DNA of 64,000 nucleotides from Gemmatimonadota bacterium (GCA_025357945.1 JANYLJ010000054.1:136607-200606), one strand, 5' to 3'; counted from the stretch's first letter, positions 26,024 to 44,081 are shown. Translations and numbers: made by a program. The notes: generated from the sequence alone by a model not told the origin.

Positions 26024-27376
26024 TCACCGCCGATTCGGCGCACAACGATCGCAGCCGCCACAGCGATCGATCCGTTCGCCGAACCATGCCAACAGGTTCC
26101 GCCGCCGACACCCGCGCGCGCGGGCGTAGGCGACCATCGCGTCGATCCGACGCGCAGCTTCGCGCCGGCGGCGGCGCACTCCCTGCCATGCCACGGCGCC
26201 CCGTTCGGGCCGCAGCTCGGCCGCCAAACGATCGGCGGCTGCCACCACGCTCGCCGGTTGGCGCGACCGGAGTGACGGATCCCGCCAGAGTCGCTCGAGG
26301 AGTCGTTCGGATGGAAAAGTGGTCGCGAGTTGCTTGCGCGGCAGCACGGCATCGGACGGATGGTGAAAGAGGACACACCGCGCCGGCGCGCGATCGCGAC
26401 CGGCACGACCCGCTTCCTGATAGTACGACTCAGGCGTCGCAGGCATCGTCCAATGGGCGACCAGGCGCACGGCCGCCTTGTCGATGCCCATGCCAAACGC
26501 GCAGGTCGCGACGACCACGCGCACCTCATCATTGAGAAAGCGCTGCAGCACGGTGCTGCGCTCGGGTGCCGTCATGCCCGCGTGATACGGCGCGGCCGCT
26601 ACACCCGATTCGACCATGATGCGGGTGAGACCGTCGACCAGCCCGCGCGTCGGTGCATACACGATACCTGCGCCACGCGTGCCGCGGACCAGGGCGGTCA
26701 GCCGCGCCAGGCGATCCTCGCGACCCGAGACGCCGACGACATCGAAGCGCAGGTTCGGCCGATCGAACGAACCGACGATCTCTCGTGCATCGGGCCGGAA
26801 CCCGAGCGAATCCTGGATGTCGCGGCGCACGTCCGGCGTCGCCGTGCCGGTGAGGGCGATGACGGGCGGGGTTCCGACCAGCTCCCGAACGCGTCGCAGC
26901 GCGCGAAAGCTCGGTCGGAAATCGTGGCCCCACTCGACGATGCAGTGTGCCTCGTCCACCGCGATCCGGCTGATACTGCCGCCCCGCGCCAACAGTTCGT
27001 CGGCGAATCGCGGCAACCGCTCGGGCGAGACATAGAGGAGTTTCAGCCGGCCCGCCGCCGCATCGGCCACCAGGCCAGCCTGGGTCGTGGCGTCGTGGGT
27101 GCTATTGAGCGCTGCCGCTGCCACACCCCGCCGGACGAGCGCTCCGACCTGGTCCTGCATCAGCGCGATCAGCGGTGAGACCACGACCGTGAGGCGACCG
27201 GATGCGAGCGCCGGAATCTGGAAGCAGAGTGACTTGCCGCCGCCCGTCGGCAGGACCGCCAGGACGTCGCGCCCGCACAGCACGTGATGGATGATGCGGG
27301 ATTGCAGTGGCCGGAACTCGGCATGGCCGAACGACGTGCGCAACAGGTTGCGGGCGAGCTCGAGTGGGGAGGACAT
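26024..27376 (-). CDS. recQ: RecQ-family ATP-dependent DNA helicase (short form)
   Basis: FRPLQ, Walker A PTGGGKSLCFQIPAL, DEAH box AVDEAHCIVEWGHDFRP, C-terminal Cys cluster CRRRNLL...CGGCDRC. At 450 aa there is no room for an HRDC domain. Confidence 0.9.
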   Translation of the reverse strand: MSSPLELARNLLRTSFGHAEFRPLQSRIIHHVLCGRDVLAVLPTGGGKSLCFQIPALASGRLTVVVSPLIALMQDQVGALVRRGVAAAALNSTHDATTQAGLVADAAAGRLKLLYVSPERLPRFADELLARGGSISRIAVDEAHCIVEWGHDFRPSFRALRRVRELVGTPPVIALTGTATPDVRRDIQDSLGFRPDAREIVGSFDRPNLRFDVVGVSGREDRLARLTALVRGTRGAGIVYAPTRGLVDGLTRIMVESGVAAAPYHAGMTAPERSTVLQRFLNDEVRVVVATCAFGMGIDKAAVRLVAHWTMPATPESYYQEAGRAGRDRAPARCVLFHHPSDAVLPRKQLATTFPSERLLERLWRDPSLRSRQPASVVAAADRLAAELRPERGAVAWQGVRRRRREAARRIDAMVAYARARGCRRRNLLAWFGERIDRCGGCDRCAPNRR

Positions 27377-27414
27377 GGCCCGGAGGTTGTTCGGGCCGGT
27401 GGTGCTACGTGGGG

Positions 27415-27429
27415 CGTTCGAGCGCGTTC
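27415..27429. promoter_or_regulatory. GTTC-N7-GTTC direct repeat upstream of recQ (candidate LexA box)
   Basis: Read directly: GTTCgaagcgcGTTC, 39-53 nt upstream of the recQ ATG (27376), in the 53-nt gap after the 48-aa ORF. Confidence 0.3.
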
Positions 27430-27440
27430 GGGTGGAATGC

Positions 27441-27587
27441 TTACGCGCGACGCCGCGCGACGAGCCGCAGTACGAGCGCGACGATCAGTACCGCAATCGC
27501 CGCCGACGCGATGCGTTTGTCGTCGCGGGCGACCGCGAGGATCGCCAGGCCCAGGCCGGCAAGCCCGGCGACGACCCGGAGCCGCAT
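27441..27587 (-). CDS. 48-aa predicted two-TM small membrane protein (below the ORF-track size cut-off)
   Basis: Own translation: MRLRVVAGLAGLGLAILAVARDDKRIASAAIAVLIVALVLRLVARRRA*. The ATG shares one nt with the enoyl-CoA hydratase TGA (TGATG). Third codon positions are almost all G/C, as in neighbouring genes. Confidence 0.5.
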   Translation of the reverse strand: MRLRVVAGLAGLGLAILAVARDDKRIASAAIAVLIVALVLRLVARRRA

Positions 27588-28345
27588 CACTTGGCGAGGA
27601 ACTCCGCGATCGCCTGGCGGAACTCCGGCGTGCTGCGTGCCAAGGCGTTGACCCGCGCGCCCAGCAGGATGCCGTCGGCGAAGGTGCGCTCGTCGAGTTC
27701 GAGGAAGAGCTGCTTGGACAGCGCGAATGCCGTGGCGCTGCGTGTTGCGAGGGTGGCGAGCAGGTCTGCTGTTTCGGCGTTGAGCGAGCCGTCAGGAAAG
27801 ACACGGCTCACCAATCCGAGGGCCAGCGCCTCGTCCGCGCCGACCTGCCGTCCGGTCGCGACGAGCTCGAACGCGCGCTTCTCACCGACTGACCGTCGGA
27901 GCATCGTCATCACCATGGCGGGGACGAAACCGCGTTCGATCTCGGGGTAACCGAATCGCGACGACGCGGCGGCGATCACGATGTCGCACGCCGTCGCGAG
28001 CCCGGCACCGCCGGCGAGCGCGCGCCCGTGCACGATCGCCACGCTCGGCTTCGGCAGGCGCCGCAAGGCGAGGAAGATTTCGCCGAGCGCCAGCGCCGAC
28101 CGTTCGTTCTCCGCCATCGTGCTATCGGCGGAGGCGAGCAACTCGTCGAGATCCGCCCCGGCACAGAAATCTTTTCCCGCGCCGCGGATCGCGACAACAC
28201 GAATCCCCGACTCGAGTTCGGCGCGCGCCAAGCCTTCGGCGAGTCCGTCGAGTGTCGCCGTGTCCAGCGCGTTGCGCTTGGCGGGCCGGTTGAGCGTCAA
28301 TGTGAGCACGCCGGCCTCGAGCGACATCAGGACGTGGTCACTCAT
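27587..28345 (-). CDS. enoyl-CoA hydratase/isomerase (crotonase) family protein
   Basis: Trimmed to ATG 28343-28345 (MSDHVLMSLEAGVLTLTLNRPAKRNALD). GAGKDFCAGADL, ALAGGAGLATACD. Confidence 0.85.
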   Translation of the reverse strand: MSDHVLMSLEAGVLTLTLNRPAKRNALDTATLDGLAEGLARAELESGIRVVAIRGAGKDFCAGADLDELLASADSTMAENERSALALGEIFLALRRLPKPSVAIVHGRALAGGAGLATACDIVIAAASSRFGYPEIERGFVPAMVMTMLRRSVGEKRAFELVATGRQVGADEALALGLVSRVFPDGSLNAETADLLATLATRSATAFALSKQLFLELDERTFADGILLGARVNALARSTPEFRQAIAEFLAK

Positions 28346-28694
28346 CGCGATTCCGCCACCGGTTGGCCAGCTTGCGGGGCAGGTCAATCTCCATCCGCAA
28401 CAGCGCGGTTGAAAAGACCTTGCCCTGCGCGTCGGTCTTGAGGGAGAGGGTGCCGCCACCGTCCAGCGCACCGTGCAGCAGGAAATTGAGCGCGGTGAGG
28501 TTGGGGAGCTCGAAGCGTTCCACACCGCTCACCATCCCCTTGAAATGCCTGGCCACGCGCTTCGCGGTGACCTGTGCCTCGAGCACCGGATACAACTCCG
28601 GCGCGAGGGCGATCAGACCGACGTTGGCCGTGTCGCCTTTGTCGCCGGAACGCGCGTGGGCGAGGTAACGCAACTGAATGCGGGTCCCCGGCAT
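28338..28694 (-). CDS. small AtuA-associated protein (AtuA C-terminal / DUF4387-like domain)
   Basis: 118 aa, LRYLAHARSGDKGDTANVGLIA... The start shares one nt with the stop of the DUF1446/AtuA gene. Family assignment is from memory of the motif, not searched. Confidence 0.55.
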   Translation of the reverse strand: MPGTRIQLRYLAHARSGDKGDTANVGLIALAPELYPVLEAQVTAKRVARHFKGMVSGVERFELPNLTALNFLLHGALDGGGTLSLKTDAQGKVFSTALLRMEIDLPRKLANRWRNRDE

Positions 28695-30067
28695 CAGAGC
28701 AACTCCACGCGGACAAGGGGCTCGATCAACTCACGCGTCAGCAGTGCAGGCCAGTAGGCGACGATTTCCTCAACCTGGGGACGGCCGCCGGCAAAGCCGG
28801 TGACGCTCGGTGGGCCGGTCAGTACCAGCGGAGCAATCTCGCGACTGAATCGTTCCACCGGCTCCCGTTCGCGCGCGCGCACGCCGATGCGCAGCATCAC
28901 CTCCGCGATATCGGGGTCGGGATCGCCGCCGAGACGCCCGTGCGTCGCGTTGACGCCGACCAGCTCGGTGAGGACCTGCTCGAACGTCAAGCCGAGCGAT
29001 TTCAGGCGCTTGCGGAGGATCGCATCGGCTGCCTTCGCCTTGTCCACTGCGTCCGGCCACGAGTAGACGAGCGTTCCCACCGCCTTGTATCCGTAAAACC
29101 AGGCGACGGAGACCTTGAGCATCGGCGTACGGGGCCGGCCGCGGATTCCCGAAACGTGGACCCGATCCTTGGCCGTCTGCCGCAACTGGATCGTCGTGAA
29201 ATCGGCGACGCCGTCCGGTGTGATGTACGCGTTCGGGTCGCCCATTTCATACACGAGTTGCTCGGTCACTGATGCGACGTTGACCACGCCGCCCGTGCCA
29301 CGGTGCTTGGTCACGGTGAAGCTACCGTCTGCCTGCGCCTCAACGATCGGAAAGCCGACGTCATCGAGCCGCTTCACCGACCGCCAATCCTTGAGCAGGT
29401 TGCCGCCCGAGCTCTGTGCGCCGCACTCGAGGATATGACCGGCGATCGTTCCGGCCGCAATCCGATCCCAATCGTCGGGCTGCCAGCCGAATTCGTGGAC
29501 CAGCGGGCCGAGTGTGAGGCCGGTGTCGGTGACCCGGCCGGTGATCACGACGTTCGCGCCGCGCTGCAAGGCTTCAACCACCGGGGCCATGCCGAGGTAG
29601 GCGTTGGCGGCACGCACGTGGTCGCGCACGTCGCTGAGCGGGCGGCCGGTGTCCATGTTGGCGAACGGCTCGCCACCGGCAACCAACTCGTCGAGCCGAC
29701 CCATCAGGTCATCGCCGGTCACCAGGCCGATCCGGATCGTCTCCCCCAGGCCGAGTCGGTCGGCGGCGGCCCGCACCGCGGTGGCGCAGGCGCGGGGATT
29801 CACGCCACCCGCGTTGGAAATGACGCGGATGCCCTTGTCGGCGACGTCGGGAAGAATGCGCTCCATCTGGCTGACAAAATCGCGGGCGTAGCCAGTCGCG
29901 GGATCGCGGCTGCGCTGCTTTTGAAGAATCGACATGGTGACTTCAGCGAGATAGTCGAGCACCAGATAATCGATCGGTCCGCCGCGCACCTGCCGCAGCG
30001 GCGCCTCGAGCCAGTCGCCCCAGAAGCCCTGCCCCGCCGCAACCCGGACCGTCCTGGGTCGACTCAT
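28694..30067 (-). CDS. acyclic terpene utilisation AtuA-family protein (DUF1446)
   Basis: MSRPRTVRVAAGQGFWGDWLEAPLRQVRGGPIDYLVLDYLAEVTMSIL..., the typical AtuA/DUF1446 N-terminus. ATGA overlap with the S8 peptidase stop. Confidence 0.7.
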   Translation of the reverse strand: MSRPRTVRVAAGQGFWGDWLEAPLRQVRGGPIDYLVLDYLAEVTMSILQKQRSRDPATGYARDFVSQMERILPDVADKGIRVISNAGGVNPRACATAVRAAADRLGLGETIRIGLVTGDDLMGRLDELVAGGEPFANMDTGRPLSDVRDHVRAANAYLGMAPVVEALQRGANVVITGRVTDTGLTLGPLVHEFGWQPDDWDRIAAGTIAGHILECGAQSSGGNLLKDWRSVKRLDDVGFPIVEAQADGSFTVTKHRGTGGVVNVASVTEQLVYEMGDPNAYITPDGVADFTTIQLRQTAKDRVHVSGIRGRPRTPMLKVSVAWFYGYKAVGTLVYSWPDAVDKAKAADAILRKRLKSLGLTFEQVLTELVGVNATHGRLGGDPDPDIAEVMLRIGVRAREREPVERFSREIAPLVLTGPPSVTGFAGGRPQVEEIVAYWPALLTRELIEPLVRVELL

Positions 30068-32973
30068 CGCGGCGCCTCGGCCGGTCTGGCCAGCGTCAGC
30101 TCGCGCGTCCAGATATGGTCAGTCCCTTCCAGCGCCACGATAGTCACGAGCGGGACGAAGTCTACTGGGAATTGGATTGGCATCAGGCCCGGCACAAAGC
30201 GTTCTTCGCGCAGCGCACCGGCCGCGACCGGCTTGACCGGCGAACCATCACCGTCGAGCGCGTACGGCTTCTCGACATAGAAGCGGACCGTCAGCTCGAC
30301 GGACCAGGCACCGGGGTCTCGCGGGTCGGCAAAGCCCGGCGAAAGCAGCACGATCACGGTATCACCCGCGATGCTGTCGGGTAGCTCCGGAACGGCGCGG
30401 CTGAAGGCATAGTTGATCGGATGGGTTTCGAACTCACGCCCGCGGCGATCGAGAAACGAAAGGCCGAAGTCGGTGAAGCGCGACCACTCTTCGCGCGGCA
30501 TCCGGGTGTCAACGACCATGCGGACGGCCCAGGTGGGCACCGGGATCGCGATGCGGGTGGGAGCATCGCCGTCGCGTTGCACTGTGATGCGACGTTCCGC
30601 ACCGGTCAATCCAGCGCGAAGGCGGACCGGGAGCGACCTGGCGATCAGGCTCCGGGCGGTGACGTGCAAGGTGTCCCGTACCATCGTGGCGCCGAGACGA
30701 AGGGGCGCCTGCCGCACGGTGACCTTCGCCGCGATCGGCGCCAGCGGGCCGGCGACGACATCCACCTCATAGATACCGGCGACGACGTCATTCGCGGCGA
30801 GGTCGAACAGTCCCGCACCATCACCGAAACCGGCCGGAATCATGCGGTCATCCCGGAACGGCATGCCACCCGGTTCATGCAGCGCCGCAGCGACCCGCTC
30901 CGATGCCGTCAGCGTTGCCACCTCGATCTGCAGGCCGCGGCCGGTGTCTGTCGGCACGAACACGCGCCCGATACCGCCGGCGGTGACGTTGAGGTTGACG
31001 GGCGCCCTGGTGCCGGATGCCGACACCGGTGTACGCACGACCACCGGGATCACGGCGAGCGGACCGGCAGTCTCGTCCGGGCCTTCGACACGAATCAGGG
31101 CGCTCAATATTCCGGGCGCGACAGCGGCACCGGGGAGGATGCCTAGCGTGAACTCGCCGCGGCCGGCCGTGAGCGTGATCGTCTCGGGCAGCTGCAGCCA
31201 GTTCGCATCGGCACGGAGGCGGAGTGTCAGCGAACCCGCGCTGTCGAGGCGGCGAAGCACGACGCGCGCGCCGAGCGGCCGCGCGCTCGCGGCGTCGGGG
31301 CTCGCGGTGAGGTACACGGCGCCACGACCGGTCGCACTGCCAACATCGACGGCGACCTCGGCGAAATCGTGCGACGCGGTCAACCACTGCCAGGCGCGCG
31401 TGAGATCGGGGAGCCCAGCTCCCTGATCCGAGCTGACGCCCGACGGAAGCGGACGGGCTCCCATCCGGAGACTCTGCCGGATGATCCGAGCCGGGGCGGC
31501 GCGCCCCGACGCGCGCAGGCCCGACAGCAGCCGCGCGGCGAGCCCGGCGCCGTACGGCGACGCCATGCTGGTGCCATTCTCCTGTTCGTCCCCAATCGCA
31601 AAGTTGGGAACCGTCGAATAGGCCACGCCCGGCAGGACGATGTCGGGGCCGGCAATCTCGCCACCGCGACTCGAGAACGATGCGACCGGTTCCGCGCTCG
31701 TGTCATCGGCGCCGGCGCCGGCGAATACCAGGGGTAGTGTCGCGCCGACGGAAATAACGCGCGTTGCACTGCCGGGAACCCCGAGACTGCTGAGCCCGGG
31801 ACCGTCATTGCCTGCGGCGACGGTCATCACGACCTCAGGATGCGCCGCCAGCATCGAATCGATCATCGCATCGATGCGCGCGGTCCCCTCATGTTCGTTG
31901 CCCACGCCGAACGACAGGTTCACCACCAGCGGCATCGCCCGTGCGCCGGCGAAGCCGATGGCGTAGTCGAGGGCACGCACCATCGAGCCGGTCACACTCA
32001 CCGCCCCGTGGGCATCGTCAGCGATCTTGAGGCCGATGATCCTGGCACCCGGCGCGACACCGTCGAAACCCGCCACGCCATAGAGATTGTGCCCAGCGGC
32101 GATCCCGGAAACGTGCGTGCCGTGACTGCTGGTATCAAAGAAGAGATCGAGAACCGGCGTACCGGCGGAGTCCGCCAGGTTGACGGCGATGTCGAGCGGC
32201 GCAGCGCCACGCTTCGGATCCACCCCGACGGGCTGATACCAGCTGAACAGCTCCCGTGCGACGAGGTAGTCGTGGACCGGACGCTCGTTCGCCAATGTCC
32301 CGTCGCCGTCGGTATCGGCAAGGAGCTCCCAACCGGACGTGGTCTTCGCGACCACCACCACCAGCGTGTCACCCACAGTTCCGTTCCCGTTGATGTCGGC
32401 GGCGGGTGGTTTGCCGAGCGCCAACTCCGCAATGGTGCCGCCCCAGATCGGCGAGTCGCCCGCCAGCGCCGCGACCCGCGACGCTCCGAGAATGCGCCGG
32501 TCGCCCACGAGCAACGTGTCGCCGCGCCGCACCACACGCTGCAAGCGAACCCGCCCTTCGCCAGAGAAGTCGCGCAGGTCGAGCACCTTGGTCGACCCGT
32601 CGGCGGCCAGCGCGAGGCCCGGTACGCCGGGATCGATCCCGCTGTCGAGAATTGCTATCAGCACACCGCGTCCGTCCCACATCGGGTGGTCGGCGGCGAA
32701 GCGCGGGACGCCAGTCGAGCGGAGCGCCATCAAACCATGCGCGAAAGCGATCGCCGCGGAGTCGCGTCGCATTCGATTCAGCGCCGTCCCGAGGCAGCCC
32801 GCGCCACCCGGACCGACCGCACACGCTGCCTCAGGTGCGACCGGGTCGTGTGGTCCGCTGGCGTGGGGATCGGCCGGCGCGGGAACCGGGGCTGCCGCCG
32901 GCGTGGCGCGGTGACCGCACGACGCGAACGCAAGCACGATCGGGACGAACCAGATGACCGGCAACCGTTTCAT
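30064..32973 (-). CDS. S8 subtilisin-family serine peptidase lipoprotein, tripeptidyl-peptidase-II-like architecture (969 aa)
   Basis: Lipoprotein signal MKRLPVIWFVPIVLAFASC. Catalytic D110 (AILDSGID), H284 (SSHGTHVSG), S469 (GTSMASPYGAG). There is a 174-aa insert between Asp and His and an approximately 490-aa C-terminal region. Confidence 0.8.
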   Translation of the reverse strand: MKRLPVIWFVPIVLAFASCGHRATPAAAPVPAPADPHASGPHDPVAPEAACAVGPGGAGCLGTALNRMRRDSAAIAFAHGLMALRSTGVPRFAADHPMWDGRGVLIAILDSGIDPGVPGLALAADGSTKVLDLRDFSGEGRVRLQRVVRRGDTLLVGDRRILGASRVAALAGDSPIWGGTIAELALGKPPAADINGNGTVGDTLVVVVAKTTSGWELLADTDGDGTLANERPVHDYLVARELFSWYQPVGVDPKRGAAPLDIAVNLADSAGTPVLDLFFDTSSHGTHVSGIAAGHNLYGVAGFDGVAPGARIIGLKIADDAHGAVSVTGSMVRALDYAIGFAGARAMPLVVNLSFGVGNEHEGTARIDAMIDSMLAAHPEVVMTVAAGNDGPGLSSLGVPGSATRVISVGATLPLVFAGAGADDTSAEPVASFSSRGGEIAGPDIVLPGVAYSTVPNFAIGDEQENGTSMASPYGAGLAARLLSGLRASGRAAPARIIRQSLRMGARPLPSGVSSDQGAGLPDLTRAWQWLTASHDFAEVAVDVGSATGRGAVYLTASPDAASARPLGARVVLRRLDSAGSLTLRLRADANWLQLPETITLTAGRGEFTLGILPGAAVAPGILSALIRVEGPDETAGPLAVIPVVVRTPVSASGTRAPVNLNVTAGGIGRVFVPTDTGRGLQIEVATLTASERVAAALHEPGGMPFRDDRMIPAGFGDGAGLFDLAANDVVAGIYEVDVVAGPLAPIAAKVTVRQAPLRLGATMVRDTLHVTARSLIARSLPVRLRAGLTGAERRITVQRDGDAPTRIAIPVPTWAVRMVVDTRMPREEWSRFTDFGLSFLDRRGREFETHPINYAFSRAVPELPDSIAGDTVIVLLSPGFADPRDPGAWSVELTVRFYVEKPYALDGDGSPVKPVAAGALREERFVPGLMPIQFPVDFVPLVTIVALEGTDHIWTRELTLARPAEAPR

Positions 32974-34592
32974 CCGAGCGACCCAGCCAACACAAATGGC
33001 CCAAGGTGGGGCCCGGGATTATTCGAAGTCACGCGCAGCAGAAAGGCGAGGAGGTCGCGCGTCTCTTCCGGCGGGACGATGGCGTCGACGAAACCGCGGG
33101 CCGCTGCGTAGCGGGCGTCGAGCTGGTGTTCGTAGTCGACGCGCATCGCGTCGATCGACCGCTGCGTGTCGGCGTCGAGTTCGCGATGCTCCTTCCGCGC
33201 CTTCTCGATCGCGGTGCCGTGCGCCGCCATGATCGCGGACTCGCCCTCCATCACCGCCATGCGCCCGGTTGGCCAGGAGACGATGAAGTCGGGATCAAAT
33301 CCCTGCCCTGCCATGGCATAGTAGCCGGCGCCGGAGGCGTGATTGACCGTCAGGACGAACTTCGGCACGAGGGCGGTCGCCATCGCCTCAACGAAGCGGG
33401 CACCGGCCCGGATGATTCCCTCGTGTTCCGCCTCCGGACCCACCATGAATCCGCTGACGTCCTGCACAAAGAGGATCGGCAGCCGTTCGCGATTGGCGGT
33501 GTCGATGAAAAACGCCACCTTCTCCGCGGTCTCGGCGTACACGATGCCACCGAAGCGCGGCTTTTCGCCGGCGCGCCCCTTGATCAGACCGCGCTGGTTG
33601 GCGATCACCGCGACGGGTCGGCCGGCGATTCGGGCGTGACCACAGAGTATCTCGCCGGCGAGGCCCGGCTGGAATTCGTCGAACACGCCGCCATCGAGCA
33701 GGCAATCGAGGATCTGCCGCATGTCATACGACAGGCGATGATCGTGGGGGAGGAGGTCGTAAAGCGCGGCCGGATCGGTCTTCGGTGGCCGCGCGTCGCC
33801 CACCGTTGCGAGGGGCGGCGCGCTGGCCGGCAGTCGTGCGACGTACTCGCGGATCCGCCGCAAGCACTCGGGATCGTTTGCGGCGCGGTAGTGGGCCACG
33901 CCGCTCACCTCGGTGTGGGCACGCGCGCCGCCGAGCGCCTCGCCGTCGACGACCTGGCCCGTGGCACCCTTGACAAGATTCGGCCCGCCGAGCCCCATGA
34001 ACGAGGTGCCGTCGACCATGAAGATCACGTCCGAGAGCGCGGGGAGGTACGCGCCGCCCGCGACGCAGCTTCCCATCACCGCGGCGATCTGCGGAACGTG
34101 GAGGTAGCGCCGCATCAGTGAGTTGTAATAGAAGATCCGCGCCGCGCCGTACTGGCCGGGAAAGACGCCTTCCTGATACGGCAAGTTGACGCCGGCGGAG
34201 TCGACCAGATAGATGATCGGTATGCGCTGGCGCATGGCGACTTCCTGCGCCCGCAGGATCTTGGTGATCGTCTCGGGCCACCACGACCCGGCCTTCACTG
34301 TCGCGTCGTTCGCGACGACCACGACCTCCCGCCCGCTGACGACGCCGACACCGGTGATGACCCCCGCCGCTGGCGCGTCGCCGTTGTAGCGGTCATACGC
34401 GACGAGAAGCCCGATCTCGAGCCAGCGCGTCGCCGGATCGAGCAGCTGGGTCACGCGCTCGCGCGGCGACAGCTGGCCCTTCGCGTGCATCTTCTCCACG
34501 CGTTTGGTGCCGCCGCCGAGCCGGAGCTTCGCGGCGAGAACCAGGTACTCGTCGGTCAGCGCGCGAAGGCGAGACGCCCGATCGCCCGTCAT
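32970..34592 (-). CDS. acyl-CoA carboxylase carboxyltransferase (beta) subunit, MccB/AtuC-like
   Basis: KGQLSPRERVTQLLD, VVVVANDATVKAGSWWPETITKILRAQEVA, IPIIYLVDSAGVNLP, PQIAAVMGSCVAGGAYLPA. Confidence 0.85.
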   Translation of the reverse strand: MTGDRASRLRALTDEYLVLAAKLRLGGGTKRVEKMHAKGQLSPRERVTQLLDPATRWLEIGLLVAYDRYNGDAPAAGVITGVGVVSGREVVVVANDATVKAGSWWPETITKILRAQEVAMRQRIPIIYLVDSAGVNLPYQEGVFPGQYGAARIFYYNSLMRRYLHVPQIAAVMGSCVAGGAYLPALSDVIFMVDGTSFMGLGGPNLVKGATGQVVDGEALGGARAHTEVSGVAHYRAANDPECLRRIREYVARLPASAPPLATVGDARPPKTDPAALYDLLPHDHRLSYDMRQILDCLLDGGVFDEFQPGLAGEILCGHARIAGRPVAVIANQRGLIKGRAGEKPRFGGIVYAETAEKVAFFIDTANRERLPILFVQDVSGFMVGPEAEHEGIIRAGARFVEAMATALVPKFVLTVNHASGAGYYAMAGQGFDPDFIVSWPTGRMAVMEGESAIMAAHGTAIEKARKEHRELDADTQRSIDAMRVDYEHQLDARYAAARGFVDAIVPPEETRDLLAFLLRVTSNNPGPHLGPFVLAGSLG

Positions 34593-34597
34593 CGGGG

Positions 34598-35032
34598 TCA
34601 GTTGCGCAGGTTTGCGCGCGCCCAGTCCTGGACGTACGCGATGAGATCGGCGGTCGGCGTGCCGGGTCCGAAGAGTCGTCCGATCCCCTGTGCCTGCAGC
34701 GCGGCCATGTCTTCCTGCGGAATGATGCCTCCACCGGTGACCAGGATGTCGCCACGGCCCTGGTCCACGAGCAACTGCCGCACGCGCGGGAAGAGCGTCA
34801 TGTGTGCGCCGGAAAGAATCGACAGGCCAACGACGTCGGCGTCTTCCTGCACTGCCGCCGACGCGATCATCTCCGGGGTCTGGTGGAGTCCGGTATAGAT
34901 CACTTCCATCCCGGCATCGCGCAGGGCCGCCGCCACGACCTTCGCCCCGCGGTCATGGCCGTCGAGGCCGGGTTTGGCGACCAGCACCCGAATCGGGCGG
35001 GTGAGCAGCAGTGCGTCGGCGACAGCCATCAT
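34598..35032 (-). CDS. B12-binding small subunit of a split methylmalonyl-CoA-mutase-family enzyme
   Basis: Trimmed to ATG 35030-35032 (GGGAG 8 nt upstream). [28 protein letters not shown] (DxHxxG cobalamin motif), VVGLSILSG. Confidence 0.85.
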
Positions 35033-35051
35033 GCGGCCACTCCCAGGCAAG

Positions 35052-36206
35052 TCATTTGAACCGGAGCAATCCGGCCAGTCCGTCGACCGCGTCGGCATGC
35101 TCGACGTCGTACATCACGTCGAGTGCGACGCGCTGGCGGAGTGCCTCTTCGATGGCATCATCGATCACGTCCAACGTCGGGATGACTTCGCCATCCGCGC
35201 GCAAGTCGCGCGCGAGTGTCGACAGCCGACCCGTCTTCGTCGAGCGGAACCCCGGCATCACGGCGTCGCCGCGCACGAGCAGCAGCCGCACCTGGCCGTG
35301 GGACAGCGCCTTCAGCGTCTCGCGCACCCCGTTCACTGCCCAGCTGGTCCCGAGACCTTCGGCCAGTTCTTCGATATGGCGTTCTTCGGAGAGCTGCGCG
35401 TGGCGCACGTGCACTTCCATCGTCAGCCGCTGCACCACCGCGGGTGTTGCATCCTTCGGCCCCAGCTTCGCGATCCCGATCAGTCGGTCGGCGAGGTAGT
35501 TGTGCAGGAACGGTTCGAGCGCGGCGGCATCGCTGCCGGATGCCGCGAGCACGATCTGATGCCCGGGCGACTTTCGATCGAGCTCAAACAGGGCGTGGGC
35601 AACGCCTTCGAGGTGCCGCCGCCTGGCGTCGCGGATGCGATTGTGAAACGAATACTCGCCGGTGGCGTCGCCGCGCCCGCCCGCCGCGTGATACCGCCCG
35701 CCGCGGGTGATCTTCCAGGTGACCTTCTGGACCATCTTCGTTTCGGTGGCGGTCACCTCCCAGATCAGCGCGAAGGTCCGGTCGAGTGTCACGGTAAACA
35801 GCCGGCCGAATTCCGCCTCACTCGCCGCGAGCTCGCGGACGAGCGGCGTGCGGTCCACGGCCAGCCGGGAGCGATGTACCCGTGGTAACGGGCGGACCTG
35901 GAACATCTTCATCGCCTGGCAGGCGAAAATCGCGAGGCCTTGTGCATCGGGCAGCATCGCTTCATCACTCAGGAAATCGAGGATGCGCGCGAGGTCCGCC
36001 CGGACCGCGTCCTGGCCCCGCTTGTCCCATCCCAGGGACGGCAGCGCGTACTCGAGTGCCTTGATCCGGTTCCTCGCCTTGACCAGGTACTTCTTTCGCG
36101 TGCGATCCCGCGGCTCAAGTTTGAGGTAACAACTCACGACCGGGTGCGGACCGGGCTTCATGCGCAACACGTCCTGCGCGTCAGCTGCCTGCCGATTACT
36201 GGCCAT
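35052..36206 (-). CDS. eRF1/Pelota-like (bacterial aeRF1 / Vms1-type) protein, no GGQ motif
   Basis: AAGGAG lies 6 nt upstream of ATG 36204-36206. N-terminus [14 protein letters not shown]. Central loop [19 protein letters not shown]. Domain-2-like [29 protein letters not shown]. Domain-3-like [26 protein letters not shown]. Recognised by pattern only. Confidence 0.55.
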
Positions 36207-36226
36207 CGTCTGCTCCTTCGTGATCT

Positions 36227-37921
36227 CTAGAAAAACACCGGCTCACGATACGCTCCCCAGACCTGTTCGAGCACGTGCCGGATTTCAAAGAGGGTGCAAT
36301 AGGCCCGCGCGCAATCGAGCATCGCGGGGATGATGTTCCGGTCGTCCTGCGCCGAGGTTGTCAGCGCCGCGAGGCGGGCATCCACCAGCGCCTGGTCACG
36401 GGATGCGCGCATTGCGACCATGCGACGCCGCTGCTCTACTTCCGCCGCCTGGTCGATCTTGAGGATATCGATCGGCGGTTCGTTGTCTTCGACAAACGCA
36501 TTGAGCCCGACGACCGTCCGCTGGCCAGCCTCCACTTCCGCCTGGAATCGCGAGGCGGAGCGGGCGATCTCGCGCTGGAACCAGCCCGCTTCGATCGCCG
36601 CCACGGTACCACCCATCGCTTCGACCTGGGCAAAGATTGCTTCCGCTTCGGCTTCCATCTGCTCGGTCAGCGCCTCGACCAGATACGACCCGCCGAGGGG
36701 ATCGGCGACGTTGGCGGCGCCGGTCTCGTAGGCGAGGATCTGCTGCGTGCGCAACGCCACCCGCACCGACAATTCGGTCGGCAGCGCCAACGTCTCGTCG
36801 AGCGCGTTGGTGTGGAGCGACTGCGTGCCGCCGAGCACGGCGGCGAGGGCCTGATACGCGACGCGCGCGACGTTGTTCATTGGCTGCTGCGCGGTGAGCG
36901 AGACGCCGGCCGTCTGGCAATGGAACCGCATCTTGAGCGATCGCTCGTCGCGCGCGCCGTAACGCTCACGCAGGTGACGCGCCCAGATTCGCCGCGCGGC
37001 GCGCAACTTGGCGATCTCCTCGAAGAAGTCGTTGTGCACGTCCCAGAAGAACGACAGCCGGGGCGCGAAGCGATCGACGTCCAGCCCGCGCGCGATGCCG
37101 CGTTCGACGTAGGTGAATCCGTTCGCCAGGGTGAAGGCGAGTTCCTGTCCGGCCGTCGACCCGGCTTCGCGAATGTGGTACCCCGAAATCGAGATCGAGT
37201 TCCACTGCGGCGTATGCTCGCTGGTCCATTCGAACAGGTCGACGATAATCTTGAGCGACGGCTCGACCGGGTAGATCCAGGCGTGCTGCGCCACGAATTC
37301 CTTGAGGATGTCGTTCTGGATCGTCCCTTGCAGCTTGGCGATCGGGACGCCCTGGCGTTCGGCGGCAGCCACGAAGAAGCAGAACAGGATCGCCGCCGGA
37401 CCGTTGATCGTCATCGAGACGGAGACCTGGTCCAGGGGGATCCCGTCGAAGAGCGTCTCCATGTCGGCGAGCGAGGAGATCGCGACGCCGCACTTGCCGA
37501 CCTCGCCCTCCGACCGGGGATGATCCGAGTCGTACCCCATCAGCGTCGGAAAATCGAACGCCACGGAGAGGCCGGTCTGGCCGCGTTCGAGCAGGAACTT
37601 GTACCGCTGGTTGGTGTCCGCTGCCGTGCCGAAGCCGGCAAACTGCCGCATCGTCCACAACTTGCCGCGGTACATGGTCGGGTGGATCCCGCGGGTGTAC
37701 GGGTACTCGCCGGGGAGCGGCTCGACCGACGCAACGTCCAGCGGCGTGTAGACGGGATTGAGCGCTCGGCCGGAAATTGTGGTGAAGGTGGTGTCGTCGC
37801 GCTGCTTCATTCCGGCGACCTTCGCCTGCCACGCCGCGACCTCGTCACGCAGGCGGGACAACTCCTCCCCCTGCACGGCGAGCCGTTCCAGAAGCGAGTC
37901 GTTCGAAGCGAGCGTCGTCAT
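36227..37921 (-). CDS. large (substrate-binding TIM-barrel) subunit of a split methylmalonyl-CoA-mutase-family enzyme
   Basis: ORF 36227..38569 trimmed to ATG 37919-37921 ([14 protein letters not shown]...). [36 protein letters not shown]. No C-terminal B12 domain. ATGA overlap with the meaB stop. Confidence 0.9.
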
Positions 37922-38976
37922 ACCCTGGCCCCCTCCTTCAGTGCGGCAACGATATCCGCCGCCAGCTCGTAGGGACTCGTCCGGCCCACGGACACGTCGT
38001 CCAGCCGGGCGGTGATCATCTCGTCGGCGTGCGCCTCCTGCCAGACCCAGCGGCGCATGGCACGTTCGACGACCTCGCGCGTGCGCTCGGCGAGCCGGGT
38101 GCGCCGCCGTTGCTCGAGCGCACCGCTCGCGACCAGCCACAACCAGTGCGCTTCGAGCGCGTCGATGACCGCCTCGATCCCGTCGCCCTTCGACGCCGTC
38201 GTCACCAGCACCGGGGGCCGCCACACCGTCGGGTCGGCAACGTCCACAGCGGGCCGTTTCGGCGGACCCGAACGGAGCGCGCCATGATGCGCGGGCACCG
38301 GGCGTGACATCCTGCCGCTTCGGAGGTCCAGCGACATCTCCAGTTCGCGCCGTAACTTGTCGGCGCCGGGTCGATCGGCCTTGTTCACCACGAAGAGATC
38401 GGCCGCTTCGATGATGCCGGACTTCAGCGTCTGGATCCCGTCGCCAGATTCCGGCACCAGGATCAGCGCGGTCGTGTCCGCCATTCTGGTGACGTCGAGT
38501 TCGGATTGCCCGACACCAACGGTCTCCACGATGATGCGCTCGAACCCCGCGGCGTCGAGCACGTCGCACACTTCGCGCGTCGCGGTCGCGAGGCCACCGA
38601 GTGAGCCCCGCGTGGCCATCGAGCGGATGTAGACGCCGGGATCGAGGGCGACGCTCTCCATCCGGATCCGGTCGCCGAGGAGGGCTCCGCCAGTGAACGG
38701 TGATGTCGGGTCGACGGCGACCACGGCGACACGGAGGCCCTGGACCCGATACGCGGTGACCAGGCGTTCGGTCAGGGTGGATTTGCCGGCACCGGGCGGC
38801 CCGGTCAGTCCGATGCGGCGTGCCCGGCCGAGGCGGGGATGCAACGTCGCGAGCAACTCTTCGTACCCGGATCGTCCGTTCTCGACGATCGAAACGGCCC
38901 GCGCCAGAGCGGCGACTTTCCCCGCCAGCAGCGCGGCGGTCAACGCGTCATCGAGCATGACGGAACCTAGCACCAC
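37918..38976 (-). CDS. meaB: methylmalonyl-CoA mutase-associated G3E GTPase MeaB/ArgK
   Basis: Walker [38 protein letters not shown]. Confidence 0.9.
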
Positions 38977-39000
38977 GCCTCGACTTAGGCCAAAAACCGG

Positions 39001-40341
39001 TCACAGCAGGATGGCGCTGGCAAGGCCGAGCAACAGGGCAAAACCGGTCGCGTCAGTGAGGGCGGTCACGACCACCGGGGATGCCAGCGCCGGATCGCGG
39101 CCCAGGCGCCGGAGAACCACCGGGAGGGCCGCCCCGACGATAGCTGCGAGCGCGACGTTGGCGGCCATCGCGACCGACACGACGAGGCCGAGTTTCCATG
39201 TTTCGCCGAGAAGTACGGCCACCCCGCCGACGACCGCGCCAATACCGATACCGTTGACGGCGCCGGTCGCCGCCTCGCGCGCGATGAGCCCCCAGAGCCT
39301 CGCCGACCGCTCTGGATGCAGGATCAGCCGGCGCACCGAGGTCGCCAGCGCCTGTGTCCCGGCGTTGCCACCCACACCGGCAATCACGGGCATCCATACG
39401 GCGAGCGTGACGATCCGGAGTACCGAGCCCTTGAAGAAGTACACCACGGCGGCGGCGCCGAACGCGAGGAGCAGGTTGGTGTAGAGCCATGGCAGGCGGC
39501 TCCGAACCGCCGAAGACCACGTGGCGTCGACGCCTTCACCAACCAGAACGCCGCCGAAGCGGAGCAGGTCGTCTGTTGCCTCGTCCACGGTGACGTCGCG
39601 CACGTCATCGCCGGTGACTCGGCCCAGCAGGCGTCCCGCCCGGTCGACCACCGGGACACTGCTCAGGTTGTAGCGCGCGATCACCCGGGCGACCAATTGA
39701 TGGTCCTCGTCCGGGCCGACGTGCACGGTGGTGCGGCTCATGACATCACGAACCAACTGCGCTGGCGATGCCCTCAGCAGTTGCTGCAACGACAGGACGC
39801 CACGTAGCCGACGTTCGGCGTCGACCACGAAGATCTCTGTCAGGTCGCCGATCATCGCAGCCTGCCGCCGGACCGCTTCCACCGCCAGGCCGATCGGATC
39901 GAGTTCGCTGACCGTGACCAAGCGCGATGTCATCAGTCCGCCGGCGGATCGTGCGCCGTGGGCCAGCAGCTCGTTGAGCGCGGCCGGGTCCGCCAGGCGG
40001 TCAAGCAGCGCCCGGCGTTCATCCGGGGACAACCGGCCCAACAGGGCCGCCGCGTCGTCATCCTCCAGTTCGGCAACAAGGCGCACCGCGCGTTCGGCGC
40101 CGAGTTCAGCCAGGATTCGTTCGGCCCGGGCATCGCGCGGCATCTCGAGGAGTGCGTGCGCGGCGAGCCGCGGCGGCAGCTGCATCACCAGCACCTGCCG
40201 CTCCACCACTCCCAACTCGAGCAGTACATCCGCAACGTCAGCCGCGGGAAGCTGGGCGGCGCGGTCTACGAATGCCGCCACGCGCCCTTCGCGCACCAGC
40301 GCCACCAGTTCACCGGTCTGGTCGGTTAGCGCCGTCTTCAT
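39001..40341 (-). CDS. mgtE: magnesium transporter MgtE
   Basis: MgtE N-domain, CBS pair (MTSRLVTVSELD..., VVDRAGRLLGRVTGDDV), and a C-terminal 5-TM domain with GNAGTQ. Confidence 0.9.
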   Translation of the reverse strand: MKTALTDQTGELVALVREGRVAAFVDRAAQLPAADVADVLLELGVVERQVLVMQLPPRLAAHALLEMPRDARAERILAELGAERAVRLVAELEDDDAAALLGRLSPDERRALLDRLADPAALNELLAHGARSAGGLMTSRLVTVSELDPIGLAVEAVRRQAAMIGDLTEIFVVDAERRLRGVLSLQQLLRASPAQLVRDVMSRTTVHVGPDEDHQLVARVIARYNLSSVPVVDRAGRLLGRVTGDDVRDVTVDEATDDLLRFGGVLVGEGVDATWSSAVRSRLPWLYTNLLLAFGAAAVVYFFKGSVLRIVTLAVWMPVIAGVGGNAGTQALATSVRRLILHPERSARLWGLIAREAATGAVNGIGIGAVVGGVAVLLGETWKLGLVVSVAMAANVALAAIVGAALPVVLRRLGRDPALASPVVVTALTDATGFALLLGLASAILL

Positions 40342-41525
40342 GCCGGCGCGCGATCGAGATTGACTGCACCAGCGTTGCTGCGGCGTATCAGGACCCGCTC
40401 CACTCGGGTGGCGGATGCCTGGATCACGTCAACCTCGAGCCCCCGGACCAGGAAGCGGTCGCCCGCACGAGGGATCCGTCCAGCCAATTCCGCGAGCAGT
40501 CCCCCGAACGATGCCGCGTCGCTCGGCGGCAGGTCCACCGCGAAGTGCTCGGCGACTACCGACGGCGCGGTAGCACCGTCGACCTCGAGGAGATCGCCCG
40601 CCGGCGCGGGCGCTGGCGGCGCGGCGGCGTCCTCATCGGCGATCTCGCCGACGAGCGCCTCGAGGAGGTCTTCGAGCGTCACGATACCCGCCGTGCCGCC
40701 GAATTCATCGACCACGACCGCGAGGTGCTGGCGTTCACGCTGCATATCGAGGAGTACGTCGCCAGCCGGACGCAGCTCCGGCGCGAACGATACCTGCCGC
40801 AACGGGAGAGGGTCGCCAACCTGATACTTGAACAGGTCGAACGCGTGGATCATGCCGACGATCTCATCGAGCGTGGCGCCGTACACCGGCACGCGCGTGT
40901 ATCCACTCTCGGCGAACACCGTTTCGACCTCAGCGTATCCCGCGTCCTGCGGGACGGCCACCACGTCGGTCCGCGGCGTCATCACGGCGCGCACCGGTCG
41001 TGCGGCGAAGGTCATCACACCGCCCACCATCACCAGTTCTTCGCCACCGACACCGGACGCGGACCCCTCGCGCGCGAGGGCGCGAACGTCATCGCCCGGA
41101 TCGGCGTTGCGCGCCGGAAGCACCACGCCGAGGAGTGCGGTCCACCCGGTCAACACCGGCTGCAAACGATCCACGACACGTTCGGCTCGGGGCACCGTGA
41201 GCCAGCGTGGCAACAGGTAGCCGCCGAGCAGTGTGATTGGAACGCCCACGAAAACGACCACGAGCCAGAGGGCCCACGACGTGGCACCATTGAGGAGCCC
41301 GGGAATCGCCGCGCCGGAGAGTGCGACACCGAGCGATGTCGCCGCAGTCGCAGCGACCACCTGGCGTTCCGTCGTCGCCAGCCACCCGAGTGACTCCCGC
41401 GTGCCGCGCAGCCGACGCGAGATCGCCTCGGCGAGTGCGGCCCGCGCAGTCGTCACCAACGCGGCCGCGCCAGCCGATCCGACGAAGGCCAGCGCCAACC
41501 CGGCGCACAGCAGGAGCCACTTCAC
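40338..41525 (-). CDS. CNNM/CorC-type protein (TM domain + CBS pair + CorC_HlyC)
   Basis: MTPRTDVVAV, VPVYGATLDEIVGMI, HLAVVVDEFGGTAGIVTLEDLLEALVGEI, C-terminal ...VERVLIRR. Confidence 0.8.
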   Translation of the reverse strand: MKWLLLCAGLALAFVGSAGAAALVTTARAALAEAISRRLRGTRESLGWLATTERQVVAATAATSLGVALSGAAIPGLLNGATSWALWLVVVFVGVPITLLGGYLLPRWLTVPRAERVVDRLQPVLTGWTALLGVVLPARNADPGDDVRALAREGSASGVGGEELVMVGGVMTFAARPVRAVMTPRTDVVAVPQDAGYAEVETVFAESGYTRVPVYGATLDEIVGMIHAFDLFKYQVGDPLPLRQVSFAPELRPAGDVLLDMQRERQHLAVVVDEFGGTAGIVTLEDLLEALVGEIADEDAAAPPAPAPAGDLLEVDGATAPSVVAEHFAVDLPPSDAASFGGLLAELAGRIPRAGDRFLVRGLEVDVIQASATRVERVLIRRSNAGAVNLDRAPA

Positions 41526-42700
41526 GCGGACCGCTGCTCATCGGCGGGCTGCGGCGGCCAGACGGTGATGCGCCGCACGCGGCGGCGAACGACCAGGTCA
41601 ATGACGAATCGCCAGCCGTCGATCACCCGTTCCTCGCCGGTGCGCGGGACACGCCCGAACTCGGCGAGCACGAGCCCGCCGACAGTGGCGACCTGGTCCT
41701 GGCCGAAATCATGCGCCAACTCGGCTTCGAGGTCGGCGAGTGGGATGCCGCCCTGCACCGTGTAGTGGCCGTCGTCGTGCCGCAGCAACGGCTGCACCTC
41801 ATCGACGTCGTGCTCGTCCTGGATCTCGCCGACGATCTGTTCGAGGATGTCCTCGAGCGTCACCAGGCCCGCCGTGCCGCCGAACTCATCAACGACGATC
41901 GCGAGGTGGCCACTACCACGCTGAAAGTCGCGGAGCTGGCGATCGAGGCGCTTGGCCTCGGGCACGAAGCCGGCCGGCCGGATCAACGTTTGCCACGGGA
42001 CATGCGATGTGGTGCCGCTGTGGAGCCGCGGGAGCATGTCCTTGGCGTGGAACATGCCGACGATTGCATCAGCGTGCCCGTCGAACACCACCAATCGCGC
42101 GTGCTCGCTTCGGCGCAGCGTAGCGATCACGTCGGCTTCGCTCGCGGCGACGTCGACCGCGATGATATCGATCCGCGGCGTCATCACTTCGGACACCGTC
42201 ATGGTCGAGAGTGAAAAGACGCCAAACGCCATCTCCTGCGGCCTCTGGGCACCGGCACGGGGTGCGGCGCCCGGCGTCACGCTGAGGCTCCGGTCGGCAC
42301 GGCTGGCGAGGTGAAGCAACGGTGCAAAGGCCGGCGCGGCACGCAGGGCGACCATCCGCGCGTACGGGACGAGTTCCGGCGCCAGCGCGGCGAGCAGGCG
42401 GGGCGCCAGGTCGCCCACTGCCCACACGAGCAGCGTGACCAGGATCACCCGGATCAATGCGCCAACCGGCGGGTAGGACCACCAGGCCACCGCGGTCGCG
42501 GCGAGTGCCGCCGCCACGGTGAGCAGGGTGAGATGCATGATGTGCAGCGCCCGCGCCGGTGGCAGGCGGTCGGGCACCGCTTCGCGGGCGAGTGCGCGCG
42601 CGCCGAGCTCGGCTTCGCCTTCTCCCGCCAGCGCCATGAGACTGGCCGCCAGCATGACCAGGCCGGCAAGCGCCGGAAGGCCGCGGATCAGTTCGTTCAC
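41522..42700 (-). CDS. second CNNM/CorC-type protein (TM domain + CBS pair + CorC_HlyC)
   Basis: GTG at 42698-42700 overlaps the ybeY stop (GTGA). VMTPRIDIIAV, HLAIVVDEFGGTAGLVTLEDILEQIVGEIQDEHD. Confidence 0.8.
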   Translation of the reverse strand: MNELIRGLPALAGLVMLAASLMALAGEGEAELGARALAREAVPDRLPPARALHIMHLTLLTVAAALAATAVAWWSYPPVGALIRVILVTLLVWAVGDLAPRLLAALAPELVPYARMVALRAAPAFAPLLHLASRADRSLSVTPGAAPRAGAQRPQEMAFGVFSLSTMTVSEVMTPRIDIIAVDVAASEADVIATLRRSEHARLVVFDGHADAIVGMFHAKDMLPRLHSGTTSHVPWQTLIRPAGFVPEAKRLDRQLRDFQRGSGHLAIVVDEFGGTAGLVTLEDILEQIVGEIQDEHDVDEVQPLLRHDDGHYTVQGGIPLADLEAELAHDFGQDQVATVGGLVLAEFGRVPRTGEERVIDGWRFVIDLVVRRRVRRITVWPPQPADEQRSA

Positions 42701-43125
42701 GGCAGGCTCGCCAGGTACCGCTCCTGACGCCGCCACATCGGTGACCGGGTCAGCGTCGCGTCCTGGGGATGATCCCATCCCAGGATGTGGAGCGTGCCGT
42801 GCACCACGAGGCGGAGCAGTTCCTCACGAACCGGAACGGCGTGGGCACGCGCGTTGCGCGCCGCCACGTAGCGGCAGATGTAGATGTCCGCAGCCACAGA
42901 GCCATCCGGCTGCGGCAACGGGAACGAGATCACGTCGGTGGAGTAGTCGTGGCCGAGATACTGGGCGTTGAGCCGTCGCATCTGTGTCTTGCCGACGAAC
43001 GTGATCGCGACCCGCGCGCGTCGCCGTTCGTGTCGCAACACGTGCGCAGCCGTCGCGCGCACCGCGCGGGCCAACCCATCGGTGCCGCCGCTCACGATCA
43101 CCGCCGAGATGCCCGCGACCGGCAT
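42697..43125 (-). CDS. ybeY: rRNA maturation RNase YbeY
   Basis: VVHGTLHILGWDH zinc-binding motif. Confidence 0.9.
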   Translation of the reverse strand: MPVAGISAVIVSGGTDGLARAVRATAAHVLRHERRRARVAITFVGKTQMRRLNAQYLGHDYSTDVISFPLPQPDGSVAADIYICRYVAARNARAHAVPVREELLRLVVHGTLHILGWDHPQDATLTRSPMWRRQERYLASLP

Positions 43126-44077
43126 CAGCCTGCCTGGTCGTCGGCGTACGCGCGGATGATGTCCTTGACCAGCCGGTGGCGCACCACGTCGGCGTCCGTG
43201 AGATAGTGAAATGCGATGCCCTCGATGCCGGGCAGGACGCGCTCGATCTGCACCAGGCCGGAGTCCTCGCGTCGCGGCAGGTCGATCTGTGTCTTGTCGC
43301 CGGTCACGACCACCTTGCTGTTCACGCCCAGCCGCGTCAGGAGCATCTTCATCTGGGCACCGGTCGCGTTCTGTGCCTCATCAAGGATGATGAACGCGTC
43401 GGAGAGCGTGCGCCCGCGCATGTACGCCAGCGGCGCGATCTCGATGACGCGCGTCTCGATCGCCTTCTGCACCTTGTCGTTCGGCATCATATCTTCGAGC
43501 GCGTCGTAGAGCGGCCGCAGGTATGGATCGACCTTCTGTTGCAGGTCACCCGGCAGGAATCCCAGTGACTCACCGGCCTCGACCGCGGGGCGCGCGAGCA
43601 CGATGCGCTTGACCTGTTTGCGCGCGAGCGCCTCCACTGCCTTGGCGACCGCGAGGTAGGTCTTGCCGGTGCCGGCGGGGCCGATGCCGATCACGATGTC
43701 GTGCGCCGCGATCACGCTGAGGTACTCGCGTTGGCCGGGCGTCTTGGCGACGATTGCGCGGCGGCGCCCCGGCAACAGGATCTTCCCCGAATCGCCCGGG
43801 GTGCCAAGTTCGCCGACGTGCCCCTCGGTCGCGATGCGGAACACGTCTTCGGACTCGATCGCCTGTCCGCTCCGCGCCAGGTCGATCAGGCCCTGCACCA
43901 CGGGTGTCGCGCGCGTCAACTGGTCGACCGTGCCGATCATCGTGACGGCGTCGCCGCGGTGCGACACGCGGACGCCGAGGGCACGCTGCAGTTCGGTGAA
44001 GTTCGCTTCGTTGATCCCGGCGAGCGCCATCGGATCGGCGCCGTCAGCGGCGAGCGTGACGCGGGTATCGTCGGTGT

Positions 44078-44081
<4 letters not shown>
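43125..44081 (-). CDS. phoH: PhoH-family ATPase
   Basis: Walker [24 protein letters not shown]. Confidence 0.9.

Follow-up and report, generated by a model that had tools for sequence, protein, structure and literature searches.

Bacteria terminate translation with RF1 and RF2. They also carry proteins with the fold of the archaeal and eukaryotic release factor aeRF1, a bacterial fold family (baeRF) that was described in 2019 by Burroughs and Aravind (PMC6514570); in that work a conserved basic helix following the catalytic loop is tied to binding of large-subunit rRNA and insertion into the A site, and family 10, which has a conserved glutamine in the catalytic loop, is singled out as possibly active. 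The closest proteins of known role are the Balons: Balon was defined by Helena-Bueno et al. in 2024 as a ribosome hibernation factor that sits in the A site, with or without mRNA, its N-domain binding the decoding centre away from the mRNA and its C-domain contacting EF-Tu·GDP (PMC10901736). The vicinity of HPF or RaiA genes is the classical neighbourhood of both baeRF-1 and Balon genes (PMC6514570; PMC10901736), and a 2025 preprint reports that chimeric HPF genes often adjoin Balon genes. Here we analyse a protein of this kind encoded in a stretch of 64,000 nucleotides from a Gemmatimonadota bacterium (GCA_025357945.1, JANYLJ010000054.1:136607-200606; this whole stretch is called the window below), where its gene lies between the two subunit genes of a split B12-dependent acyl-CoA mutase. 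The evidence points, with fair but far from complete confidence, to a divergent Balon-type, non-catalytic A-site factor of baeRF-1 family 10 that would be co-transcribed with a catabolic operon and have no physical role in the mutase.

The gene occupies positions 35052-36206 on the minus strand, begins with ATG and is preceded by a ribosome-binding site, AAGGAG (36213-36218, minus strand), that is read in the sequence 6 nt before the start codon; a preliminary description of the window, which had reported a 384-aa open reading frame (ORF) with this signal between the large- and small-subunit genes of the mutase, is borne out on each of these points. On sequence grounds we take the ORF to be a real gene, because a word index holds over 2000 homologues of it, clustering at 50% gives 1081 representatives with E<=1e-3, its orthologues are 50-99% identical and many of their columns are invariant. 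The close homologues all come from Gemmatimonadales or from metagenome-assembled genomes of Gemmatimonadota, and in JGI, where their Pfam matches are precomputed, they go under the name 'peptide chain release factor subunit 1'.

The release-factor fold is real and the clade is baeRF-1, Balon-like, as is evident from Pfam, from a family profile compared with the PDB, and from a predicted structure searched with Foldseek. The Pfam model baeRF_family10 (PF18854) matches residues 121-264 and only just passes, at 29.7 bits for a cut-off of 27.1; it is matched by all 67 of the diverse relatives that we aligned (67/67, best E=1.9e-46). The NCBIfam matches are sub-threshold and fall exclusively on the three curated Balon families, AOC03_06830, MSMEG_1130 and Rv2629, which are also matched by 62-64 of the 67 relatives. 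Searching the PDB with the single sequence (phmmer) gave nothing meaningful, and a profile of the 67-sequence family was needed; this profile retrieves the Msmeg1130 Balon first (E=1.4e-34, full length), followed by aRF1 (4af1, 3.5e-25), Rv2629 (5e-19) and the Balon of P. urativorans (8e-16). An AlphaFold2 model made from 36 orthologues has three domains (pLDDT 87.2, pTM 0.77), and its top Foldseek match in the PDB is again the Msmeg1130 Balon (8v9j_z, E=4e-23, TM 0.68/0.71), with Rv2629 and the P. urativorans Balon at TM 0.60-0.63 (8v9l, 8v9k and 8rd8 are also among the top matches), aRF1/eRF1 at TM 0.43-0.49 (4af1, E=2.8e-19), and Pelota/Dom34 weaker (E=1e-10 to 1e-6, TM 0.24-0.37). The architecture of baeRF-1 is present in the model: an N-domain, a middle domain with an RNase-H fold, and a C-domain of Pelota type, into which two strands are inserted where the zinc ribbon would be.

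These results uphold the earlier recognition of a three-domain protein of the eRF1/Pelota superfamily that lacks GGQ, and correct what had been said around it. The 'Vms1-type' label pointed to the wrong clade: the protein is a baeRF-1, and membership of Vms1/VLRF-1 was rejected since neither Pfam nor NCBIfam gives a VLRF1 or acVLRF1 match and the loop has no Gln. Two other assignments were considered and rejected, a true class I release factor (GGQ and NIKS are absent, and there is no match to TIGR03676) and a Pelota orthologue (the Foldseek matches are much weaker than those to Balon). Bacterial eRF1-like proteins had been called poorly characterised and set mostly in rescue or conflict contexts; Balon has since been defined as an A-site hibernation factor (PMC10901736) and the nearest solved structures are Balon homologues, and PADLOC returned 0 defence families at E<=0.01.

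Neither GGQ nor NIKS occurs anywhere in the 384 residues, and the segment from residue 160 to residue 217 is free of Gln. The loop equivalent to that of GGQ comprises residues 164-184 (35655-35717, minus strand); it includes residues 168-180, [13 protein letters not shown] (35667-35705), for which the lack of glutamine had been correctly noted, and ends in T182-G183-E184, which an HMM alignment sets opposite the GGQ of aRF1 4af1. Glu184 thus stands in the column of the GGQ glutamine, and is found there in 36/36 orthologues and 55/67 wider relatives, with Gln in 3/67. A single Gly precedes it, and the residues before it drift within the window's own clade (TGE, AAE, TAE); this loop is also the lowest-confidence part of the model, with a pLDDT of 60-74. 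Relatives at middle distance have a strongly conserved loop, RGGKFHSDRxDAPGWGE, and three distant members have GWAQ or GWSQ, among them P0254 (GWAQ), which scores highest against PF18854 (158 bits). These three fit the conserved catalytic-loop Gln that Burroughs and Aravind describe for family 10, and therefore, judging from the alignment, the clade of the window protein is a Gln-to-Glu, long-loop offshoot of baeRF-1 family 10.

In the set of 36 orthologues, whose identities range from 52 to 86%, about 70 columns are invariant. Conservation peaks in an N-domain motif from Y27 to R47, [21 protein letters not shown] (36066-36128, minus strand), in which Y27, K29, E31, R33, D34, R35, R37, K43, N46 and R47 are invariant in the 36 orthologues. 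In the HMM alignment to 8rd8_B, R33-D34-R35 lies opposite E-H-P of the P. urativorans Balon (..THREHPAND..), so that H-P falls at D34-R35; the aligned H-P is probably the published decoding-centre 'HP motif', an equivalence that we infer, the main text of that paper giving no residue numbers. Directly after the GGQ-equivalent loop comes the basic helix of residues 185-200, [16 protein letters not shown] (35607-35654, minus strand), with the basic stretch [11 protein letters not shown] and invariant N189 and R190, so that the basic post-loop helix by which baeRF-1 is recognised is present. In the C-domain, residues 317-345 (35172-35258, minus strand) form an insert at the site of the aRF1 zinc ribbon, where two Cys are kept by relatives; DSSP applied to the model gives strands at 319-322 and 341-344 and a helix at 332-338, and in the model this insert is a candidate equivalent of Balon's beta-hairpin that binds EF-Tu. 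The C-terminus carries an aRF1-like GLxxLLRF motif.

The position of the gene inside the mutase operon was followed in two samples. In the first, anchored on the Balon-like gene itself (the best 80 GTDB loci), all loci are from Gemmatimonadales/Gemmatimonadota except one labelled Bacillota and one from an 'uncultured bacterium', and nearly all of those with enough flank have the same array, namely MeaB, mutase large subunit, Balon-like gene, mutase small subunit, carboxyltransferase, an optional S8 peptidase and AtuA, an order that holds from 76% to 50% protein identity. The second sample is unbiased regarding the Balon-like gene since it was anchored on the mutase large subunit; it consists of 80 metagenome loci, 60 of them with at least 1300 nt downstream. 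The Balon-like gene directly follows the large subunit in 55 of these 60, the spacers in the order large subunit, Balon-like gene, small subunit being 7-100 nt. Across the mutase-anchored loci the Balon-like protein falls to 39% identity with the window protein, while 72-85% is kept by the large subunit and 75-90% by the small one (medians 49%, 76% and 83%, respectively), and it is the fastest-evolving member of the array. The same sandwich is found around a 42% homologue in a read-archive assembly (L087). The sandwich is thus no one-off: it is an old synteny, specific to Gemmatimonadota and conserved across the order Gemmatimonadales. The locus labelled Bacillota (L057, JBLMWC010000099.1, 'Bacillota bacterium MAG294') has a full Gemmatimonadales-type array, with 70-78% identity to the window in MeaB, both mutase subunits, carboxyltransferase and AtuA, 53% in the Balon-like protein and 46% in the S8 peptidase, and its label is probably a binning error.

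The tie to the mutase is not obligatory, as the exceptions to this arrangement show. In 5 of the 60 mutase-anchored loci the small subunit directly follows the large one and the Balon-like gene is absent, as it is in L138, which is not long enough to be counted with the 60. A neighbour-joining tree built on the large subunit groups these six into two clades, L170-172 and L126/L131/L138, both nested within gene-carrying ones, and there have therefore been at least two losses. Conversely, in L022 (5543-9841) and L030 (5457-9829) the Balon-like gene stands between MgtE and carboxyltransferase, and the locus lacks MeaB and mutase genes; in L009 (5939-8597) it stands between MeaB and the small subunit, and the locus lacks the large subunit. 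The Balon-like ORF is intact in all three. Further, in 12 of the 55 mutase-anchored loci with the Balon-like gene, this gene is followed by that of a 234-aa HAD hydrolase (PF00702, E=4e-24), which precedes the small subunit. This is a feature of a sister clade (L033, 8112-8816, and L099, L101, L105, L112, L116, L122-L124, L127, L128, L133 and L135), in which the mutase subunit genes are split by two unrelated genes, and the slot therefore tolerates unrelated cargo.

Homologues at 35-43% identity, whose surroundings we took from nine individual look-ups and not from a census, mostly lie in unrelated contexts. That of L084 adjoins a histidine kinase and a response regulator, and that of L085 AsnC/MarR regulators and genes of a NiFe hydrogenase; in L090 the neighbour is a PolX-like gene, and in L091 the neighbours are a P-type ATPase and a phosphoribosyltransferase. 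The 40% homologue of L089 (919-4021) comes three genes after a 176-aa chimeric HPF (S30AE+CSD) and directly before MgtE, a context that matches the published Balon/HPF neighbourhood. MgtE, which adjoins this homologue, is also next to the Balon-like gene in L022 and L030; such adjacency may reflect a link between ribosomes and Mg2+.

Together, these observations make a Balon-type function the likeliest account of the protein, and we consider it probable. Like Balon, the protein would enter the A site of the 70S ribosome, neither reading a codon nor releasing a peptide. Its Arg-rich N-domain loop (EPRDRxR) would touch the decoding centre, its long, flexible loop in the middle domain, with the basic helix that follows, would touch 23S rRNA near the peptidyl-transferase centre, and its C-terminal domain, with the two-strand insert, would face EF-Tu, the outcome being that ribosomes are stored in a protected state once translation has stopped. 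Invariant residues cluster in the N-domain loop and the post-loop helix, where they are basic; these are two of the regions homologous to the ribosome contacts of Balon. Binding to the ribosome, lack of catalysis and the timing of action in the cell are proposed here by analogy. Being transcribed together with an operon for the catabolism of branched-chain acyl-CoA (genes for MeaB, a mutase like isobutyryl-CoA mutase (ICM), carboxyltransferase, AtuA and enoyl-CoA hydratase) might, as a speculation, couple synthesis of the factor to the conditions that call for expression of the operon.

Several observations weigh against this reading. The scores of the window protein in the Balon families of NCBIfam, 36.1, 30.5 and 29.0 bits for AOC03_06830, MSMEG_1130 and Rv2629, are far below the curated cut-offs of 330, 480 and 320, and because of this the protein is, by sequence, not an orthologue of any characterised Balon. 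The H-P dipeptide of Balon is not present at the aligned site. In the window the gene has neither an HPF nor a stress-operon neighbour. The sandwich persists while the protein diverges to 39% identity, a stability that would be uncommon in a neutral arrangement. Finally, the PGWGE loop of the mid-distance relatives is well kept in both length and sequence, which is the pattern that Burroughs and Aravind associate with catalytically active families.

This last point leads to the alternative that survives best, although we consider it improbable: a catalytic or rescue factor that enters the A site of stalled ribosomes and hydrolyses or cleaves the peptidyl-tRNA, Glu184 standing in for the GGQ glutamine. 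In its favour, Glu184 fills the column of the GGQ glutamine and is constant in the orthologues and present in most wider relatives, and substitutions of the GGQ glutamine in bacterial release factors cut hydrolysis only moderately. Loop lengths in the nearer relatives are narrowly distributed, core members of family 10 such as P0254 have GWAQ at this place, and family 10 is the one named as possibly active by Burroughs and Aravind. Against this, there is a single Gly before the Glu and its flanks drift in the window's clade, and the nearest structures are those of the non-catalytic Balons, of which Msmeg1130 also has Glu in the E184 column of the HMM alignment. Nor do we know of an active release factor in which a carboxylate replaces the amide.

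We likewise regard as unlikely, and slightly more so, that the gene is an operon passenger with another or a decayed function, for example a relic copy of a baeRF-1 gene, retained chiefly for its place in a dense polycistronic array, or a protein with a role in translation other than that of Balon, such as a regulator of specific mRNAs. It is the fastest-evolving gene of the array and has been lost at least twice, and the PGWGE of more distant relatives is degenerate in its clade; but the ORF is intact and of full length in all loci examined, and, taken with the roughly 70 invariant columns among the orthologues and a confidently predicted three-domain fold, this argues for purifying selection on a working protein.

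The preliminary description had proposed that the protein acts off the ribosome, recruited together with MeaB for assembly, repair or cofactor loading of the split mutase subunits, and this proposal finds no support here; we give it little credence. What speaks for it is the gene order, kept in 55 of the 60 mutase-anchored loci and in nearly all of the 80 gene-anchored ones down to 39% identity, with the sandwich extending to the 42% homologue of L087, together with the lack of an HPF or stress gene nearby in the window. Against it, the gene is missing from two nested clades of mutase operons, is kept where the mutase genes (L022, L030) or the large subunit (L009) are lacking at the locus, shares its slot with an unrelated HAD hydrolase, and has other homologues at 35-43% identity in unrelated contexts. 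The conservation of the protein is centred on basic motifs at ribosome-contact positions, it evolves much faster than the mutase subunits, and we know of no protein of the aeRF1 fold with a non-ribosomal role. Least probable of all is a Balon-type factor specialised to the mutase operon, pausing ribosomes in cis between the subunit cistrons for co-translational assembly with MeaB or acting as a direct chaperone of the mutase, for which the persistence of the sandwich to 39% identity is the only positive evidence and against whose obligatory link, though less so against a facultative one, the independent losses in both directions argue; if true, either form would put the aeRF1 fold to a non-canonical use dedicated to an enzyme for the first time.

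The operon in which the gene lies is on the minus strand throughout. The 564-aa large subunit of the mutase (36227-37921; PF01642, 746 bits) ends 20 nt upstream of the Balon-like gene, and the 144-aa B12-binding small subunit (34598-35032; PF02310, 93 bits; TIGR00640, 170 bits) begins 19 nt downstream of it. The MeaB-type G-protein chaperone of the mutase (37918-38976; PF03308, 307 bits; TIGR00750, 332 bits) shares 4 nt with the beginning of the large-subunit gene. The small subunit is followed by the carboxyltransferase subunit of an acyl-CoA carboxylase (32970-34592; PF01039, 432 bits), a 969-aa S8 peptidase (subtilase; 30064-32973), AtuA and an enoyl-CoA hydratase. The S8 peptidase gene overlaps the carboxyltransferase and AtuA genes by 4 nt at either end; it is at the same position in most related loci and missing in some (e.g. 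L005, L015-L017).

The large subunit reads RQFAGF and FVAQHAW, which places Phe at 89 and Gln at 207 when the alignment is anchored, with no indels, on the GYH histidine (His244 in the numbering of P. shermanii). We take Phe89/Gln207 to be the signature of isobutyryl-CoA mutase, as opposed to the Tyr/Arg of methylmalonyl-CoA mutase; a literature search on the Tyr89/Arg207 mutase signature gave nothing relevant. The best sequence match of the large subunit in the PDB is the 2-hydroxyisobutyryl-CoA mutase (HCM) HcmA, 4r3u, and by its sequence this is probably a mutase of ICM/HCM-like kind, set in a catabolic cluster of branched-chain or Atu/Liu type.

Upstream of MeaB the array begins with AspRS and continues, co-directionally and as identified by Pfam, with PhoH/YbeZ (43125-44081), YbeY (42697-43125), two CNNM/CorC genes (40338-42778) and MgtE (39001-40341), so that a region with AspRS, a ybeZYX-type cluster (ribosome maturation and quality control) and Mg2+ transporters lies immediately upstream of MeaB (39001-45994, minus strand). 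A scan of 27000-46500 found no sigma-70-like promoter, with a model that may not fit the promoters of Gemmatimonadota, and terminator-like sites in this interval were no commoner than chance, with none from MeaB to the carboxyltransferase; Rfam gave no riboswitch or other RNA in the operon. The G+C content of the window is 67.5%. Farther upstream on the minus strand are three ORFs of 154-263 aa (46000-46791, 46722-47405 and 47918-48382) with no Pfam match at E<=1e-3, which may not all be genes, and the sole RNA gene detected in the 64-kb window is a tRNA-Leu(CAA) (18602-18684, minus strand).

Should the Balon-type function that we favour be correct, the Gemmatimonadales would carry a deeply divergent factor of this type wired to a branched-chain acyl-CoA operon and not to a classical stress operon. 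The sequence space of Balon would be widened, with Glu at the position of the GGQ Gln and RDR where the P. urativorans Balon has HP, as would its regulatory contexts. The locus would also be a caution on guilt by association, in that a long-lasting place between the genes of enzyme subunits need not mean belonging to the enzyme. The invariant Glu184 would offer a testable handle on whether any chemistry at the peptidyl-transferase centre is retained by some baeRF-1 proteins.

Compared with the described systems, the window protein is closest to the Balons of P. urativorans (AOC03_06830), M. smegmatis (MSMEG_1130) and M. tuberculosis (Rv2629) (8rd8, 8v9j, 8v9k). It has the same three-domain aeRF1-like fold and shares with them the lack of NIKS and GGQ, the long and flexible loop of the middle domain with a basic helix behind it, an insert without zinc in the C-domain and a length of about 360-385 aa. 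It differs in having only 15-18% identity to them, in reading R-D-R for H-P at the aligned place in the N-domain, and in its setting, a B12 mutase / acyl-CoA catabolic operon as against the stress or RaiA operon of Balon; the papers searched make no mention of a conserved place inside a split B12 mutase operon. With baeRF-1 family 10 it shares the three-domain architecture and the basic post-loop helix, whereas the catalytic-loop Gln of the family is Glu, in a longer loop, in the window clade. The VLRF-1 proteins (Vms1/ANKZF1) belong to the same aeRF1 superfamily and have bacterial representatives; they keep the Gln motif, which is GGxSQ in an archaeal and an actinobacterial/chloroflexi family, both without the C-terminal Pelota domain (PMC6514570). 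Pelota/Dom34 is of the same superfamily and, having no Gln, is non-catalytic, as the window protein would be, but Pelota has a different, Sm-like N-domain; A-site binding is established for Pelota and only inferred for the window protein. Homology to aRF1/eRF1 extends over all three domains and the C-terminal GLxxLLRF is common to both, but the window protein lacks NIKS and GGQ and its zinc ribbon is degenerate. As it falls short of the curated Balon families and lacks the Gln typical of family 10, it is a divergent new member of a known family; its genomic context is a curiosity and Glu184 an oddity, and its likeliest function is one already known.

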